Assembly (NCBI GenBank): GCA_951406725.2
Contig: OX597822.1
Coordinates: 32,798,001 to 32,862,000, forward strand
DNA: 64,000 nucleotides
From: Octopus vulgaris
Taxonomy: Eukaryota
Direction: 5' to 3'
In this document: positions 4,107 to 55,336 of the stretch, piece after piece
Position numbering within the stretch: the stretch's first letter is position 1
Layout: every line of letters begins with the position of its first letter
The notes under the pieces: model-generated
The model's database searches: none
Told to the model about the DNA's origin: nothing
What the model saw: the letters and a program-made list of their open reading frames with translations, nothing else
Program-made: the position numbers and the translations under genes

Positions 4107-5105
4107 AAGGCGGCGAGCTGGCAGAAACGTTAGCACACTAGGCGAAATTCTTCGCAGTATTTCGTCTGCCGCTACGTTCTGAGTACAAATTTCGCCGAGG
4201 TCTACTTAACCTTTCATCCTTTCGGGGTCGATTAAATAAGTACCAGTTACGCACTCGGGTCGATGTAATCGACTTAATCCCCTTTCCTGTCCTTGTTTGT
4301 TCCCTCTACGTTTAGCCCCTTGTAGGCAATAAAGAAATAAGAAACGTTAGCATTCCGGGCGAAATGCTTAGCGGTATTTCGTCTGCCGTTACGTTCTGAG
4401 TTCAAATTCTGCCGAGGTCGACTTTGCCTTCCATCCTTTCGAGGTCGATTAACTAAGTACCAGTTGTGCAGTGGGGTAGATATAATCGACTTAATCCGTT
4501 TGTCTGTCCTTGTTTGTCCTCTCTGCGTTTAGCCCCTTGTGGGTAGAACAGAAATAGGTACTTCCTTTGTCTTTATATTCTGAGTTCAATTTCCATCCTT
4601 CCGGGGTCGATAAATTAAGTACCAGTTGCGTACTGGAGTCGATCTAATCGAATTGCCCCCTCCCCCAAAATGCTGGGTCTTGTGCCTAGAGTAGAAAAGA
4701 ATGTACGGGAGGAGGTTGCTATTGTAGATTAGTATTTCAAAATATTTCAATGAGTTGAAATTCTCCCGAGGTTGACTTTGCCTTTCATCCTTTCGGGGTC
4801 GATAAATTAAGTACCAGTTACGATGTAATAGGCTAGTCCCCTCCCTCCAAATTTCAGGCCTTGTACCTATTGTGGAAAAGATTATTATAGGAAGTTTTAG
4901 GCGGTGAGCTGGGAAAATCGACAACACGCCGGGCAAAATGGTTAGAAGCATTTAGCCTACCTTTATGTTCTGAGTTCAAATTTCGCCGAACTCAAATTTG
5001 CCTTTTGTACATTTAGGCGTCGATAAAATAAGTACTACTTGAGCACTAGGTCGATCTTATCGACTTAGCTCCTCCCCCGAAATTGCTGGCCTTGTACCAA
5101 AAATG
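4107..5105 (+). mobile_element. Tandem cluster of about 5 SINE family B copies or fragments
   Basis: Repeated GGCGGCGAGCTGGCAGAAACGTTAGC..GAGTTCAAATT..GCCGAGGTCGACTTTGCCTTTCATCCTTTCGGGGTCGAT..AAGTACCAG. Confidence 0.85.
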
Positions 5106-18563: not shown

Positions 18564-18880
18564 GGTGTGAGAAGATGGTTAGGTAATAGTTAATTTAGAT
18601 AAGATACGAAACAGAGAGTAAGGTGGAGGAAAGAAAATAGATGTGAGATATGTAGAGATATTATATTTGTAGATCCATTTTTAGGCAGAATGCTATACAT
18701 ATAAGTTTCCAATACCTTATAAATAAAATCCAATAGTATTTAAAATTGGTCATCCAAAGTGTAGAGTTTATACACAGTGTTCTAGAATCAAGGGTTATAT
18801 TTAAAGTGACCTAAAAATAGGGAGTGTATTAGTAGGGTCAAATTGAAAACAGGAAAAGATGAATGAAGAAAGAGGAAAAG

Positions 18881-19054
18881 ATGAGAAAAAGAATGGAGGT
18901 GAGTGTCATATCGTTGCTTAAATTGTTTGGTTGATCCTATGTACATGGCTGTAGCGTTGTGTAATAGATTAAGGACCGTGCATTTATAAATTACATTATA
19001 TCTTCTCCAATGGGTTTGTAAAGGACAGATGATTTTAGGACGGCAATTACAATT
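18881..19054 (-). pseudogene. GIY-YIG endonuclease fragment of a Penelope-like element
   Basis: Manual translation NCNCRPKIICPLQTHWRRYNVIYKCTVLNLLHNATAMYIGSTKQFKQRYDTHLHSFSH (not in the ORF track). Confidence 0.85.
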
Positions 19055-19138
19055 AGGTGAATTTTGGGGTCTGCGTTCAGTAATAGAGGAGGTAATATCG
19101 TCAGAGGAAAGGTTATAGAAGGGGTGGAAATTTCTATA

Positions 19139-19139
<1 letters not shown>

Positions 19140-19217
<78 letters not shown>

Positions 19218-19252
19218 CATCATTACTATTATTATTATTATCATTATTGTTA

Positions 19253-19294
<42 letters not shown>

Positions 19295-19320
19295 TTATTA
19301 TCATTATTATTATTATTAAC
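19140..19320. repeat. (ATT)n microsatellite inside the PLE relic
   Basis: Directly visible. Confidence 0.95.
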
Positions 19321-20501
19321 GTTATCATTACTGTCATTGCTAGTATTAATATTGTTGTTATTAATTACTATTTGTAAGGGCGGTAGAGATTGTGGTGGTG
19401 TTCCAGGCAGTGTCAGTATCATGGGTTAGGTTGTGGTTGTGGTCAAATTCAGGGGTATCTGTACTGTAGCTGTGTGAGTGTGTGTCGAGTGTTCGTATTA
19501 TTAAAGTGGTAGTTACGTGAGTTTTCATATTAAAGAGAGAACGTTTGCTTATTAGAGGGTGCTACAATAGATTCGAAGTTGGGTGAGGTAGAATAAGATA
19601 ACTTTAGGGTGGGTCGATTAAAGATAGAATGATATTTATGTTGTCGAGGGAAGTTAGAATCTAGTATTCTAAAGAAGGATTTAACTAAGTTCTTAACGTT
19701 AAGTGAGAATGGTGGTGTGTACCATAGAACAGAGCGTCCGCCACATTTGTTGTGTAAGTTATTAGATAAAGGAGTGCTATCTATATTTTGGTGGAAGGTA
19801 CGTGGGAGGCGAGGCTTGTTACTGTTAGCTGTTTTAGTTGTTTTCGTTTTTGACCTAGTGTTAAATGAATGTGTGTGTATGTGTGTGGCAAGGTTGCCTA
19901 TGTTAAAGACCTTCCATGTATGTATACATGTATGTATATACATACATACATATATATATATACATATATATATATAATGCATATGTATGTATATGCATTT
20001 AGATACATACATGTATACATACACAATGAGTAATAGACTACGTAAAAGGTGTAAGAATATATGGGGTGTTTTAAATGGTTTCCTGTCTGCCAAGTTTTTT
20101 CAAAACTAACCAAGCATGCAAGGACAGCACGACCTCAGTAGTACATAAAGAAACCAATGTAAACATCAAAGAAAGCCGAACGTTATTTAGTAAGGCAGGT
20201 AAAAAAAGTAGCGCCAACTGTTGTATAATATATTTGTATAACAAATTAGTTACATAAATAAAAAAATAAGTTCTGAACAACATAAGTAATTATAGTTTTA
20301 ATATTTGGCATGGAAGTATGATAAGGCAAAAAGTCTATAAAGCAGGTGGGTTAAAACAAATGGTAGAAATACGTAAATATCTAATACATGTCGGGCATTG
20401 GCTATATCCAACTCTTGTTTCCTTCGATCCCACGTCCATTCGTTTCACTTTGGGTTATTGTTGTCTAACCCTGAATGATAATATTATATTATTATATATA
20501 A

Positions 20502-23208: not shown

Positions 23209-23659
23209 CATGTGAAGATATATTACCCTTATATATATATATGTGTGTGTGTTTGTGTGTATGTATGTATCTGTGTCACTATATTTGTCCGCCTATAACC
23301 GCCTGATCACTGGTATTGGCGTATTTAGGAGCTCGTAACCTAACTGTTCAGCTAGAGACACCGATAGAATAAGTACTAAGCTTAAAAATTAGTCCTGGCG
23401 TCGATTTGTTTAACTAGGATCATTCAAGGCGGTACTGCAACATGACCTCCGTCAAAGGAGTGGAAGAAATAAAATAATAAAAAGAAACGAATAAACTCAA
23501 AAAGTGATTTAATATCACTTCCATGGATGAATTTCGCACGTCTTGTATCATCACTTATACTTTAAAAGTAAAATATTAACTTTTGCAGTGTCCATTTTAT
23601 TTACCATTAACCATGTTCAATGCTTTTTATTCGTACCTTACACAAACCTAATATTTGTA

Positions 23660-24198
23660 CAATGGAAGTCTGTCGGGGATCGACAATGACGTCAGTGACG
23701 CCGGAGGTGGGAGCGTGACCCAAAGGCAGACGCGCAGACGGACTTGTCGCTTCTGGTCCAGGATCTTGAGGCGCTTTTCCTTGAACAGCCTAACTCCCTT
23801 TTGGACAGCTGGACGCCAGGCGTCGCAGTCAGAGGCAAGCGATTCCCAGTTTCGGGCGGAAATGCCGCAGGCCTCAAGTGAAGTTTTCAGGCTGTCCTTG
23901 TATCGCCTCAGTGGTCTTCCAGTGTTTCTTGCTCCAGAAGCCAGCTCAGAGAAGAAGATCACCTTTTGTAGACGCGCGTCGTCCATTCGGACTACTGCTT
24001 GTCCGACCCACCGGAGCTGGGCCTTCATGATGAGGGCTTCGATTTCGGACATTTCGGCTCTGCGAAGCACCTCCGTATTGGAGACTCTGTCCTCCCAGGA
24101 AATTCCCATGATTCGTCACAAGCAGCGGAGGGGGAACTAGTCAAGTACTCGCATTTGCCTCCTATACAGCGACCACATCCCACTGCCGTAGAGCAGAT
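23660..24198 (-). pseudogene. RTE-clade LINE reverse transcriptase C-terminal fragment
   Basis: LLYGSGMWSLY..ISWEDRVSNTEVLRRA..QLRWVG..RMDDARLQKVIFFSEL..GRPLRRYKDSLK..NWESLASDCDAWR; stops upstream, 5'-truncated. Confidence 0.9.
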
Positions 24199-38997: not shown

Positions 38998-39423
38998 CTC
39001 TCTTCACCGTAGAGAAAAGGAGTGAAGCGATAGAAACAGAGAAAGGAATGTATCAGTCATTTACATGACTGAAATACAATCGAGCTCTTCTAGCTTTTAA
39101 CAATGAAGAAGAGAGAAAGATATTTAGTAATGAATTGAGGGAAAGTCCGCCAGCTTTTTATCTATCCTCCTACTACCAATATGGCCCACGACCTTTCCTA
39201 GTTCCCTCTAAAACTTCCCATTTCGCTCAACCGCGCAATACCTCATTATGGATCAATATTTCTTTTTGAGTGAGTCTGTTCCTACTCGGAGTTTCACCAT
39301 TGAATCCCATACAATCTACAGAAAATTGTTATAACCTAATCCTTACTTAACTTGACAATACTGTGTATCCACAGGCGAAACTCCGATTACAAAGAAACTC
39401 ACTCTTTGTACTCGGAGTAGAGA

Positions 39424-39620
39424 GTTCAGTTCTATATTTAAGAGATGAGGAATTATGTACATTATTTACATTATTTACATCTGACAGATATTTATTCTCA
39501 TCTTGTTTGTTGTTAGCACAACGTTTCGGCTGATATACCCTCCGGCCTTCTTCAGGTGTCTTTGGGAAATTTCGAACGTGGGTTCTCATTCCTAAAGTAT
39601 TTTTCGATGTTGTTATTGTA

Positions 39621-39660
<40 letters not shown>

Positions 39661-39726
39661 TCACTGCCTGGAATCGAACTCGGAATCTTGGAGTTAGTAG
39701 CTCGCGCTCTTAACCACCAAGCCATA
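39424..39726 (-). mobile_element. tRNA-headed SINE-like element with an HHR-containing tail
   Basis: A box TGGCTTGGTGG, anticodon-like stem GAG-CTACTAA-CTC, B box GTTCGATTC, (AAT)n, then HHR. Confidence 0.75.
39517..39558 (-). ncRNA. Minimal type I hammerhead ribozyme
   Basis: CAC-CTGAAGA-A-GGC..GCC-GAAA-CG-TT/GTG; stem III reduced to the palindrome ACGT. Confidence 0.65.
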
Positions 39727-40385
39727 TAACCGTAGAGAATTGTAGAGAAAGAGACGAATATAATTAAAAGGAAAAGAAAGAAATCAGGTATATTATATGA
39801 TTTAGTATTAGCTACGAGCACGTGCTGCATCATCTAGTGGATAGCTTGCATAAGTATGTAGGGACATCAAAGAAATTAACTTCAGTCGAGAATTTATAGG
39901 TTACGTAATGAGAATAAATCAGAATAATCAATGGGCGTATTCGTGGCCGTTGATGTATACAATGGTCGATTCCATAATACAGTATTTAATTTTGTACTTT
40001 GAGATGCTTTCATCTTTTAAACACCAGCCGTATTTGGGAAGTGTTATTGTTATTCCTTTACTAAACATCTGCCTACGTTGAATTCGTCTAGAATTTAATG
40101 AGATTCTGGTAAAGCCTATAGCACACTTTCTCTCATCGTTGTTAACATTAGAGGAACATGGTGCAGTAATCAACACTAATCTGAATGCATTTACCATATT
40201 GAATGCAAGTAGCCCTGCTACATCATTTGCACTGAAATAAGGAATCATGTAGAGAGGAGAGAACTAATAATTCCTATGCTAATTAATTGAAGAATTAGCA
40301 ACTTAATTTGGAGTTGTATTTGTTAAATTTTTTTATACAGCTTATGGTTACTATGAAAGTGTGTATTCACTAGATTTATAAAGGA

Positions 40386-46717: not shown

Positions 46718-47746
46718 AGATATGTATATGCGGTTGTATCCTGGTCTGGCTATATGGCTACACCGACTAAAACTACTGTTGTGATTATTTTGTGTCACTT
46801 TGTGTCACGTAAAGTAGCGGTTCGATGAACGAAGATCGATATATTAAGTATTAAACTTAAGAGAAAGACTCCACTACTGATCGATATAATCGACAAAACT
46901 CTTGACGACGGGGTTCCATCATTGCTACAGATCACTGACTGAATCCAGTGAAAGGGGAAAATAGTATATTAAACCACAAGTTGCAACTGTCAAGTTAGTT
47001 TAACTTGAAATAACCTATCGATTATCTGTAGTGATTCAGAAACTAATTCGTATTCCTTAGTGTTATATTGATTATAATTTGATTCGATTATGTTATTCAA
47101 TTTGTCTGTATAACATATTAGGATAAAAATAGACTATTGTTCACATAACCGATATAAATAGAGATCGCTCTTTTTGTAATTCTATTAGTTTTCAATTGAA
47201 TACATTTTTTTTCTTTATTATTTGAAGAGTCCTCAGTGATTCATCGTATGAGATATTTATAAATGTTTTTGCAGTTAAATACATTTACTAAACCTAACAA
47301 GTATCTATTTATTTTTACAGATATATAGGAAAATATGTATATACTTATGTAGCCTTTATGTAACGATCATAATGTAAGTATATCAATATATGTAACCGAG
47401 TCTCTGATCAACATTTTTTTTTATCATTCCAAATCGACATTAAGATCTTTAGAACTTTATTTTTCATGTATTACTTGTTTTAGTCATTTTATTGAGGCCA
47501 TGCTGGGGCACCGCCTTGAAAGGATTTAGTGGAAGAAATCGAGCTCACGACTAATTCTATAAAAGCCTGGTACTTACTTTATCGGCCTCCTCTTGCCGAA
47601 CCGCTAAGTTCAGAGGATGTAGATATAACAATAACGGTTGTCATTCGGTGGCGAAGGACAAATAGACATTAAGACGCACATACACGCAGACACACACAAC
47701 ACACGCAAACGCAGACCGACACACAGACACACACAGACACACACGC

Positions 47747-47809
<63 letters not shown>

Positions 47810-48039
47810 CATATAAAATATTGAACTTCTAAATCTCTCGTAGAGACATGTACGGTGGTGGGGCGATAGAATGGTTGTATACTGTCAATCTAACAAGAAC
47901 GTGACAGTAGGGGGTACATCACCGCTGTATAGCCCTAGGATGCATCGAACGCCTCCTGATAGCTTTGACACATTTTTTCCCTGTGTCCTTATATACATAT
48001 ACGAAGGGGAGACAAACACCCCCGGCTGTCGGAACTGCA

Positions 48040-48085
48040 CCTAGGGACACCGTGTTTCAGGATCGTTGTCCTTCATCGGCCTAGA
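48040..48085 (-). ncRNA. Minimal type I hammerhead ribozyme (inverted copy)
   Basis: Reverse complement of 48327-48372. Confidence 0.75.
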
Positions 48086-48326
48086 GTAGCAGACACCGGT
48101 CAGCTGGTGATATTTGCCTCGACTTCGTAATTGTATATATCTGTCACGTTCTTGTTAGATTGACAGTATACAACCATTCTATCGCCCAGCACCGTACATG
48201 TCTCTACGAGAGATTTAGAAGTTCAATATTTCTTATTTTGATAATCAGTGATTAAACTTCACCGAATATAGATATATACAATTACGAAGTCGAGGCAAAT
48301 ATCACCAGCTGACCGGTGTCTGCTAC

Positions 48327-48372
48327 TCTAGGCCGATGAAGGACAACGATCCTGAAACACGGTGTCCCTAGA
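48327..48372 (+). ncRNA. Minimal type I hammerhead ribozyme
   Basis: TCTAGG-CCGATGA-AGGA(CAACGA)TCCT-GAAA-CAC(G)GTG-TC/CCTAGA; all three stems pair; cleavage after 48366. Confidence 0.8.
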
Positions 48373-48538
48373 TGCAGTTCCGGCAGCCGGAGGTGTTTGT
48401 CTCCCCTTCGTATATGTATATAAGGACACAGGGAAAAAATGTGTCAAAGCTATCAGGAGGCGTTCGATGCTTCCTAGGGCTATACAGCGGTGGTGTACCC
48501 CCTACTGTCACGTTCTTGTTAGATTGACAGTATACAAC

Positions 48539-48596
<58 letters not shown>

Positions 48597-49280
48597 GTGA
48601 CGGGCTTCTTTCAGGTTCCATTTAACAAATCCACTCGCAAGGCTTTGATCGCTCCGAAGCCATACTAGAAGACACTTGCCCAAGCTGACATGCAGTGTGA
48701 AACGTGGAACCATGTAGTTGGGACGCAAGCTTCTTATGACACCGCGACGCTTATGCCTGTTTTCATTTTTTTATTTTCATCATGTTATAATGAAAATGTT
48801 TTTTATCGATATTTTATCGATATTCTTTCTCAAAACTAAAAGCTCGCTATTTACAGTCAATGTTCAATGCGGCCATCTCCTTCGCTAATTTCTATCTCTT
48901 TCTGTAAACTGTGACTCACGACTGAAACTTCCGTCGACACGACTATATTGTTTTGGCAATTATAATCTTTAAAATATCAAGGAAATATTATTTGCGTATA
49001 GGAAACACAACAAATCAAAGTTCCTTCACACTTCACTGGTATAAAGCTTCCGATCTCCCGTATAGAAGCTTAAACGCCATTTTACTGTTTCTTTATTTCG
49101 ATATTTCTAAGAAGTATTTGATGATGAAAGAAAGATTTTTTCCAATGTCTTGGTTTTATTTTCCGATTTCACTGTTTTATAAATTTAGATCATTGTTTTT
49201 TTAAAGTTTCAGAATGTAATTGTATATATAGAAAAAAGATGGGATATGCGTACGTATATACACAGATGTATAAGCATATG

Positions 49281-51045: not shown

Positions 51046-51435
51046 CTTTATATATAAAAGTGAAGTTGTGTGTCTGTCTCCTACGATTTAGATTCCTAAC
51101 TACTCCCACATTTTGCGGTGCAGTTTAACCAAAACCGGGTATCTTATAGTCGTGATTCATATCAAGCCCTTCTGGGTATTATCGCGCGTCTACGATGAGT
51201 CTACGATTTTAAAAAAAAATTACCATCATTTTTTCCATTTTAATGCATTTTTCGCTATTATATAAGGGAAGTAACTCTCTAAAAATGTCTACGATGAGTC
51301 AACGATTTAAAAAAATTTATCATAATTTTTTTTCCATTTTTAATGCATGTTTTTGCTATTTTTGGGCTATAACTCTCTAAAAAATGCTTATATAGTTATT
51401 TCTCTTACAAACCCGAGCAGCGCCGGGCGATACTG

Positions 51436-53388: not shown

Positions 53389-53763
53389 CATCTTGTGCTA
53401 GCAGGTCTCACACTCGGGAACGGTAATCTCTCCGACAGAATAACTCTATTCTCATTCAGGAGAGGCAGATCCCTAGTCTAGGACACGACATGCAGTGACA
53501 CGATTTTCGTCTTGAACTATGTAGCATTTTGTGCAAACCTTGGTTTCGCAGCCCATGGTGCGGAGGGGAGAGAAATCCTCAAATACAGGGTTCTGAGCGG
53601 CGGTTATAAGTTTGTGCCGGTCCCCATTGAGGCGTTAGGTGCTCTAACTCCTCGTACTACCGATTTTCTCCACAAAATAGGAATAACGGTAACTCATCAG
53701 AGAAATGAGCTCCGCGAAAAAGAGTGGCGTCTGCAGCGAAAATCGCTGACCATTCGCTGTGGC
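53389..53763 (+). pseudogene. Restriction-like endonuclease C-terminus of a CRE-like non-LTR retrotransposon
   Basis: SDRITLFSFRRGRSLV*DTTCSDT..AAHGAEGREILKY..YKFVPVPIEALGAL..EWRLQRKSLTIRCG, resembling the RPDG..W..G..L.WD / K..KY / F.P.A.ET.G / QR.S..I.RGN pattern. Confidence 0.8.
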
Positions 53764-54505
53764 GAAGGGCATGGGGTGCGGCTGAGCACACCATTCGTTC
53801 TCGGTTATGTGGCTCATTGTACCTTCCCCCTCCACCCCCACTACTTTACCTGTACCACCACCTCCCCCGCAATTGTTTCCCTATACTTTCTTTTCCTTTC
53901 TGCTCTCTTTTCTTTCAAATTTCAATTGATCATTTATTTTCTAACTCCCACTTGAATATTTACAACTTAACTGAGTCTACTATGAAGACTCGCCAAGAAA
54001 TTACTAGTTTCCTATGATTTCGTATTCCAATCTAGTGCCATTCTACACAGGATAAAACTTTACATCACCTAAGATCAATTTTCGTGAATTACGAAAATAC
54101 TTTAAGTCATTGAGTAAGGTTTTTTTTCCAAAATATTGCAACACAGTTCTACTTTACATTTCTAGTTATATTCAGCAGACCGAATGAAAATAAGATTTCT
54201 CCGGCTTTAATCTAAGATATGTATTCATCTTGTTTTGAATCAAAATTTCTTATCTGCAAATTCTTTTTGCAATCCTTCCTCAGAGGAGTGTGCCTTCCAG
54301 CTCAGCCGTTTAATAAGAATTTGTTTTCTCAGTTAACTTTTACGTATAAAATTTCCTCGGGGAATCGGTATATTAATCGTCGAATATAGGAACGGATATT
54401 GTTCCATGCCGGGTTACAGACTTCTAGCTTGTAAACAGTGCACCAGTGCATTTCAATTAGACAGCAAGGAATAGGTTTAGCGATAGAAGTAAAGAACTAA
54501 AATTC

Positions 54506-54859: not shown

Positions 54860-55336
54860 AGGGCAATTAACCCCATGACAGTTACTCCTTTAGAGCAATT
54901 GCCCCTTCCCCCCGCCCCCCGACGCCAACTACCGCCTAGGAAAATTATCCCCGACGACAACTACCTCGTAGGAAGTTACCCTCGAGGACAATTACCACTC
55001 GACGACATCTACCCCCTAGGACAATTATCCCCAACGACAACTAACCCCTAGGACGATTACCCCCGCTCCGAGGACAATTATCCCCCGACGACAACTACCT
55101 CCTAGGAAATTACGCCCGAGGACAATTACCACTCGATGACAACGACAATTACCCCGACGACAACTACCCTCTAGATAAATTGCCCTCACCCGACAACTAA
55201 CCCCTAGGACAATTAACTCTTTTGGTTAATTACCTCATCTCTACTATATTAAGATGTTTAAAACCATCATCCGTTGCCCTCAGGGGTAATTGCCCTTGGT
55301 GGGTGGGTGTTATTGCCCATGGCGGGATAAATGTCC
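54860..55336. mobile_element. Probable foldback MITE with arrayed ~15-30 bp subterminal repeats
   Basis: Many GGACAATTA(C/T)CCC / GACAACTACC units, then the inverted motifs GGGGTAATTGCCC and GGGATAAATGTCC at the right end. Confidence 0.6.

Follow-up and report, generated by a model that had tools for sequence, protein, structure and literature searches.

A young 364-nucleotide hammerhead-bearing unit inserted with Penelope-like geometry into an octopus SINE

The stretch of DNA analysed here (the window, 64,000 nt of contig OX597822.1 of Octopus vulgaris) contains an insert with a total length of 731 nt at 47816..48546. It is built of three sequence parts, defined as Y (48141-48231), Z (48232-48269), and X (48270-48504), and lies between the two halves of an older SINE. 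The features of the locus are the following, with the basis of each in brackets.

47458 to 47700, minus strand: 3′ portion of the host SINE (BLAST against the window's other copies, identities mostly 67-74%)
47677 to 47815, no strand: CA tract within the SINE, with a short TA stretch at its end; left flank (repeat scan)
47816 to 48142, minus strand: inverted 5′-truncated arm (X+Y, 327 nt) with its 3′ end at 47816 (BLAST and arm comparison)
47816 to 47865, minus strand: putative tail, a 50-nt extension past the endpoint of the right arm, equal to 48183-48231 plus one base (BLAST; tail as defined in PMC3846280, PMC8557442, and PMC11167929)
48040 to 48085, minus strand: type I hammerhead, left copy, with a U4C core and one G-U pair closing stem I (motif scans)
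48141 to 48142, no strand: head-to-head junction with a 2-nt overlap (BLAST; a contig of run X1 has a similar joint, between 48141 and 48280)
48141 to 48504, plus strand: full 364-nt unit, Y-Z-X, 44.5% GC, non-coding and strongly folded (motif scan, folding, contigs)
48273 to 48422, plus strand: long rod-like hairpin (48 pairs predicted) that carries the hammerhead at the tip (folding)
48327 to 48372, plus strand: type I hammerhead, right copy; core CCGAUGA at 48333-48339, stem II at 48340-48353, predicted cut after 48366 (motif scan, folding)
48464 to 48497, plus strand: 34-nt stretch in common with a sister family that diverges after 48497 (loose ends in 4 runs: 25, 16, 4, and 1 contigs)
48505 to 48546, plus strand: Y′, the 42-nt start of a next unit and the 3′ end of the direct arm (repeat comparison)
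48544 to 48598, no strand: TA tract, right flank (repeat scan)
48599 to 48760, minus strand: 5′ part of the host SINE, its head tRNA-like by eye, with A- and B-box-like words (BLAST; inspection)

The layout had been described in an earlier note on this DNA as rc(X+Y)-Y-Z-X-Y′, and BLAST of the region against the 64-kb window reproduces all of the matches. Two of them are inverted, one between 47866-48142 and 48270-48546 (272 of 277 positions identical) and the other between 47816-47907 and 48141-48231 (90 of 92). The third is a direct repeat, in which the 42 nt of 48141-48182 recur exactly at 48505-48546 with a spacing of 364, leaving a body of 87 nt (48183-48269) between the two repeats. The left arm is rc(X+Y), 327 nt, whereas the right arm is Y-Z-X followed by the first 42 nt of Y, 406 nt in all, which is one 364-nt unit and 42 nt more. 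The arms join head to head through the 2-nt overlap at 48141-48142. Both outer ends of the insert are 3′ ends of the ribozyme strand and each adjoins TA DNA; in Y, the right end falls at position 42 and the left end at position 91. Because these two 3′ ends lie 49-50 nt apart and the left one is the longer, the putative tail is the left end and not Y′; Y′, the shorter of the two, was ruled out as a PLE (Penelope-like element) tail. The 64-kb window contains no further copy of the unit by BLAST, and nhmmer found only the locus itself.

The insert sits, as had been proposed, inside the microsatellite of a SINE, namely the CA/TA tract of an older copy. The SINE halves flank a gap of 955 nt here, or 224 nt when the insert is left out. 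Six other copies in the window carry both halves with a gap of only 53-183 nt, which likewise contains a CA/TA tract. The head of the host SINE is on the minus strand near 48758; ARAGORN found no tRNA in the SINE, which presumably resembles the cephalopod (octopus-type) tRNA SINEs. The element had also been called young, and the arm comparison agrees: 7 of the 327 columns differ between the arms, whereas the halves of the host SINE are 69-87% identical to the other copies in the window, so that the insert is much younger than its host. A word of 11-12 nt that ends the left flank recurs at the far end of the right TA tract, with a TA run intervening. It is a possible target-site duplication, although DNA of such low complexity precludes proof.

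The claim that the element has no credible ORF held as well. The longest ATG-started frames in the two arms measure 51 and 57 aa, and Pfam searches of six element frames gave no match to an RT or GIY-YIG family. A weak Pfam match to sarcolipin (E 0.036) was rejected as chance. Common family variants include deletions of 1, 2, and 4 nt at 48415-48463, by which the 51-aa frame is broken. The frame 48356-48544, the only one compared with longer proteins, gave none at E 0.01 among 8 candidates in what was a weak search. The single ORF with RT and GIY-YIG that marks autonomous EN+ PLEs is not found in the insert.

Two relics of PLE type lie elsewhere in the window. The first (18791-19930, minus strand) is a decayed coding relic with a GIY-YIG-like piece (Pfam PF01541, E 0.017, below the cut-off), split by a TAT/AAT tract at 19137-19372; it has no DNA similarity to the 364-nt unit. 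Its upstream frame is taken by us to resemble the PLE thumb/linker region. The second (39330-40300, minus strand) belongs to a different family from the unit; near 39540, on the downstream side of a TAA tract, it carries a degenerate minimal hammerhead with a canonical core, an extra base before stem II, and a stem I of only about 3 bp, which failed the motif scans.

The arrangement of the insert is of the Penelope type, in line with the first description of the locus: it combines a partial tandem, an inverted truncated arm, a head-to-head join, a one-sided extension, and a TA target. One described PLE has direct pLTRs, next to them a shorter inverted pLTR, and at one end a tail of 31 bp; head-to-head joins are the commonest (PMC3846280). 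The same pattern and a (TA)n bias have been described elsewhere, together with non-autonomous Chlamys elements (PMC8557442). Insertions of EN+ PLEs (Pen2a_Av, PMC3846280; those of PMC8557442; PAc, PMC11167929) share with the octopus insert the partial tandem, the inverted 5′-truncated head-to-head copy, the one-end extension, the AT-rich or (TA)n target, and a hammerhead in the terminal repeat. They differ in that the body, 87 nt here, is an ORF of 2.5-3 kb, and the tail, 49-50 nt here, is usually 30-40 nt. The non-autonomous Chlamys PLEs such as MRC1 are similarly short, with pLTRs, head-to-tail insertions, and a microsatellite preference; unlike the present unit with its hammerhead, they belong to green algae, mostly lack canonical hammerheads, and have similarity to autonomous families (PMC8557442).

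The unit belongs to a family that is visible in public sequencing contigs. Parts of 48141-48546 are present in 20 of the 24 runs listed, which come from 11 studies with 4 organism labels, and the best share of the unit's words in one run is 0.70. Contigs were aligned at 85% likeness in four of these 20 runs (X1, X5, X11, and X17; four studies, organisms A and B), of which X1 and X5 are guessed to be DNA, and X11 and X17 are guessed to be RNA but may be DNA; no run known to be RNA is among the 24 listed. The contigs aligned number 1152 in X1, 1815 in X5, 210 in X11, and 51 in X17, with all bins of the unit covered in each, and contigs at least 95% identical number 720 in X1 and 1136 in X5. Pattern scans for the unit in metagenome contigs, viral contigs, and prokaryote genomes gave no match, and the sequence searches described here turned up no autonomous partner. 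No paper on the family was found in a literature search that lay outside most subscription papers, Repbase, and Dfam. A list of 31 recently active Penelope-like families of Octopus vulgaris does not mention hammerheads in the available part of its text (PMC13282606); its supplements may contain the 364-nt family.

The internal joints of the unit were followed among 32 listed pieces of the 3255 aligned. The Z-to-X joint (48269/48270) is bridged by records 10, 11, and 25, with at least 31 letters on each side and 3-9 mismatching letters; the X-to-Y joint is bridged by records 7, 8, and 32, and the joint from the Y′ endpoint into the tail by record 9. The Y-to-Z joint (48231/48232) is crossed among these pieces by record 17 only, whose 7 letters on the Y side are below the bridging rule. 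The share of aligned sequence that continues into unlike DNA is 0 in X1, 0 in X5, 0.01 in X11, and 0.24 in X17. With three of the four internal joints bridged and practically no run-on in X1 and X5, the order of the unit recurs in other copies. For this reason the element is not a plain solo pLTR, while a rare coding continuation could be hidden beyond the 24 loose-end rows listed out of 247.

These joints also bear on a different account of the locus, a patchwork of short 5′-truncated pLTR pieces of a coding PLE (one inverted, one of 91 nt, and one of 315 nt) in which the 364-nt period would be accidental. Such a patchwork is considered rather improbable. It would explain why the match of the internal Y to the left arm breaks off exactly at the end of that arm, as with a separate truncated copy, and it agrees with the Y-to-Z joint being formally unbridged among the listed pieces, with contigs that leave the unit at 48236 (2 contigs in X17) or enter it at 48267 (2 contigs in X1), and with the coding PLE relics in the 64-kb window. 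However, three records from three studies cross Z into X, two of them (10 and 25) from a start at 48236 and the third (17) from 48225. The loose ends agree among themselves only to 0.65, which points to different flanks rather than to one ORF, and the absent run-on in X1 and X5 is likewise against a coding source. A weak hint in the same direction is that depth at the listed positions in X1, X5, and X11 increases from 48266 towards 48246, as if Z were tied to Y.

The insert's own three junctions are absent among the pieces listed in X1, X5, X11, and X17. This absence is neutral either way, yet it is also what would be expected if the inverted arm had been produced by faulty assembly, or had arisen later when a simple monomer insertion folded back at the DNA level, and the inverted repeats of PLEs are known to trouble assemblies (PMC8557442). 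Such an origin of the arm is nevertheless very improbable. The seven differences between the arms place rare alleles on both sides, and the tail in the left arm stands after X, a context that the right arm lacks. Moreover, one contig of X1 has a strand-switch joint of 48141 with 48280, head to head at the same base as in the window and 10 nt from the window's own joint. Since X1 is without the window's allele at 48263, this contig represents a separate insertion or a diverged allele.

The 34 nt at 48464-48497 that are held in common with the sister family are a candidate conserved cis signal, and the sister sequence, which diverges alike in all four aligned runs, may be a related family or the end of an autonomous partner. 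Shares of A>G in X11 and X17 are mostly equal to those in X1 and X5; the share at 48284 is higher, from 3 contigs and 1 contig that come from other individuals.

The hammerhead had been singled out as the cleanest in the window, and this is true in part. The motif is of type I, with stems of 6, 4, and 4 bp, a 1-nt loop III, and a GUC site, and it occurs on both strands, with core positions 48333 (plus) and 48079 (minus) as the only two matches of two motif scans over the 64 kb. Dinucleotide shuffles of the unit gave a loose match once in 3000 and one as good in 0 of 3000, and none of 30 window shuffles matched. What does not fit the word cleanest is the core, CCGAUGA (U4C) instead of the canonical CUGAnGA, together with a predicted locked fold. 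No Rfam family matched the window at the gathering score, and the 26 matches obtained around the element up to E = 10, mostly TA-driven and all far below that score, include no hammerhead. It has been reported that U4C considerably lowers hammerhead activity in vitro yet can suffice in a viroid (PMC3088659). Among the 40 of 50 variant rows listed, a C-to-T change at 48334 is absent, so that C4 is probably family-wide. Inside the ribozyme, the common changes listed for X1 and X5 affect N7 and loops II and III.

Folding prediction gives stems I and II a probability of 0.85-1.0 and stem III, the near-palindromic 48357-48365, one of 0.00, while the first three bases of the core pair with loop III (0.98-0.99). 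For the isolated motif, the predicted locked fold has −11.9 kcal/mol against −6.5 for the active monomer, whereas a double hammerhead of two copies is predicted at −26.5 against −23.8 kcal/mol for two locked monomers. With the window's allele, this double hammerhead is only level with the best free co-fold (−26.7, predicted). A natural one-base deletion at 48361, seen at 15% (X1) and 13% (X5) of depth, turns stem III into a perfect palindrome; the best predicted co-fold of the deletion allele is the double hammerhead. The motif is thus a real hammerhead, though not a clean one, and its monomer is predicted to fold into a locked state; if it is active, it would most likely cut only as a dimer through the palindromic stem III. 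Dimer-cleaving PLE hammerheads were reportedly described by Lunse et al. in 2017.

The minimal PLE hammerheads with a palindromic stem III (PMC4209133) are alike in being of type I, with that stem built for dimer activity, and pairs of motifs 100-700 bp apart on opposite strands have been reported among them. The octopus motif differs in that its stem I of 6 bp and stem II of 4 bp are as in canonical motifs, its 10.1-11.1 pair is A-U and not G-C, and its position 4 is C (PMC4209133).

The RNA of the unit is strongly self-paired. The folding stability of 48141-48546 has z = −6.46, with 0 of 100 shuffles as stable; as a circle, the unit is predicted to be 65% paired, and the whole insert 87%. 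About 300 bp of dsRNA had been anticipated on read-through, and the predicted duplex indeed measures 277 bp with 5 mismatches. Family variants were compared with the predicted fold, in which 36% of positions are unpaired; the variants are unphased, and 40 of 50 variant rows were listed. Among the 31 variants that reach at least 3% in X1 or X5, 18 are unpaired, 6 pair-keeping, and 7 pair-breaking (p = 0.009 and p = 0.025). The 40 listed variants comprise 20 unpaired, 9 pair-keeping, and 11 pair-breaking changes (unpaired excess, p = 0.045; fewer breaks, p = 0.055). The variants at 48310 and 48385, also unphased, are the partners of one predicted pair. These counts give modest support to the view that the RNA of the family may be under constraint of its fold, as a functional structured RNA.

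The best explanation of the insert, with a probability of about 0.7, is that it is a copy of a recent multi-copy non-coding family of ~364 nt that derives from a hammerhead-bearing PLE end and is moved in trans by the RT/GIY-YIG protein of an autonomous PLE. A tandem source, which the recurring joints of the unit appear to imply, would be transcribed into RNA longer than one unit. This transcript would stay uncut because the ribozyme is weak and, in prediction, locked as a monomer; both arms do cross the cut site. The PLE protein would then nick both strands of the TA tract, as suggested by the target and by in vitro work in which a PLE protein nicked both strands of AT-rich DNA and extended them (PMC11167929). 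Each nick would prime reverse transcription at one of two fixed internal sites ~49 nt apart, the ends being observed and the mechanism suggested by them, and the two priming sites would leave one arm without a tail and the other with it. The cDNAs would stop after 406 and 327 nt and would be joined head to head through the 2-nt overlap seen in the sequence, possibly by microhomology. Self-priming on an antisense template is another possible route to a head-to-head inversion (PMC3846280).

The earlier note had taken the permuted order of the parts as consistent with reverse transcription of a circular or multimeric RNA. Since both arms read through the ribozyme cut site, the template was not a self-cleaved linear monomer, which is thereby ruled out, and the part of that claim which holds is that the template exceeded one unit in length. 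Reading the permutation as the mark of a circle finds no support: in vitro, a PLE protein begins reverse transcription from two internal sites of the RNA, the distance between them being the tail (PMC11167929), and the two outer 3′ ends, 49-50 nt apart, can be read as an ordinary PLE tail from such fixed start sites. The template could be a tandem transcript, two uncut RNAs, or a circle, and a tandem explains the locus as well as a circle does. The arms share minor family alleles at 48347, 48413, 48451, and 48483, and their differences, one inserted base excepted, fall at rare or unlisted alleles of the family. A single template sequence is therefore likely, although it could have come from a circle as well as from identical tandem units.

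In X1 and X5, the summed contig depth of the unit spans a ~40-fold range, with its minimum in Z and early X and no step at the cut site; contig depth cannot rank the parts of a stretch, so that this unevenness is only a hint and not a measure of copy number. As a hint, it leans to fixed 3′ ends with 5′ truncation. Both ends may be preferred throughout the family, a hint that comes from weak depth signals of this kind and from the 2 contigs that leave the unit at 48236.

A true non-LTR retrozyme would arise otherwise, by self-cleavage of tandem transcripts into 364-nt circles that the RT of a PLE copies past the start (PMC4209133, PMC7229834). The length, GC content, and self-pairing of the unit fit metazoan retrozymes (150-450 nt, below 50% GC; mussel 350-390 nt), the minor alleles shared by the arms are as expected from one template sequence, and the dimeric fold is energetically available, with the palindrome-making deletion at 13-15% of depth in X1 and X5. 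This origin is unlikely all the same. A ribozyme free for the active fold in the monomer is a retrozyme trait, and most described circles are predicted to have it (PMC7229834), whereas the prediction for the U4C core here is a locked monomer. The two ends fit fixed RT start sites, and the ~40-fold depth variation in X1 and X5 is, as a weak hint, unlike random starts on a circle. Furthermore, the PLE tested in vitro uses mainly uncut RNA as its substrate, and ribozyme mutants are inserted normally (PMC11167929).

A variant of the circular model takes the locked fold as a switch, the retrozyme being off as a monomer and on only as a dimer, with the 364-nt circle copied by a Penelope enzyme from both target strands. 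This is held to be doubtful, at a low probability. If it were true, the locus would be a direct structural record of PLE machinery mobilising a circular retrozyme RNA, and each inverted insertion would add ~280 bp of dsRNA open to editing or dicing.

The unit can also be compared with metazoan non-LTR retrozymes (PMC7229834; bioRxiv 10.64898/2026.07.22.740005). Both are multi-copy, self-paired, non-coding, and a few hundred nt long; both have a type I hammerhead and less than 50% GC, and retrozymes too are proposed to be PLE-derived and PLE-mobilised. The differences are that the locus has 1.1 direct units, with two ribozymes on opposite strands and not in tandem, that its core is U4C and predicted to be locked, and that it bears an inverted arm and a putative tail. 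To judge from sequence and modelled folds, the unit would work like a non-autonomous PLE, not like an autonomous one, and it resembles retrozymes in size, GC, and predicted fold; it is at most a candidate retrozyme.

That retrozymes are non-autonomous PLE derivatives has already been argued (bioRxiv 10.64898/2026.07.22.740005), and the mobilisation of retrozyme-sized hammerhead repeats by PLEs has so far been argued from co-occurrence and pLTR homology (PMC7229834; bioRxiv 10.64898/2026.07.22.740005). An inverted arm with a tail is not discussed in the latter text, in which the word "tail" does not appear and "inverted" occurs only in a reference. The insert shows the footprint of a PLE (inverted arm, one-sided tail, TA target) on a non-coding unit, which is a more direct kind of evidence. 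Each component was previously described, and the surprise for a specialist is modest. A family that is small, young, and abundant is a good set for mapping RT start sites and for distinguishing a circle from a tandem template.

Some minor observations complete the description of the window. The 5′ truncation points 48141 and 48270 lie at, or at most 3 nt from, the 5′ base of predicted hairpins (48142-48165 and 48273-48422). These hairpin bases may be preferred stop or switch points, and the inversion joint of the X1 contig is at 48141 as well. A 155-aa frame at 23648-24115 (minus strand) has no Pfam match and is taken by us to resemble the C-terminal end of an RTE-type LINE ORF. A 157-aa frame at 53482-53955 (plus strand), with no relevant Pfam match, presumably resembles a restriction-like endonuclease region as found in non-LTR elements. 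Repeats elsewhere in the window are a tandem duplication of 217 nt at 4123-4540, another of 99 nt at 51188-51383, and a GC-rich minisatellite (16/31 nt) at 54916-55164.
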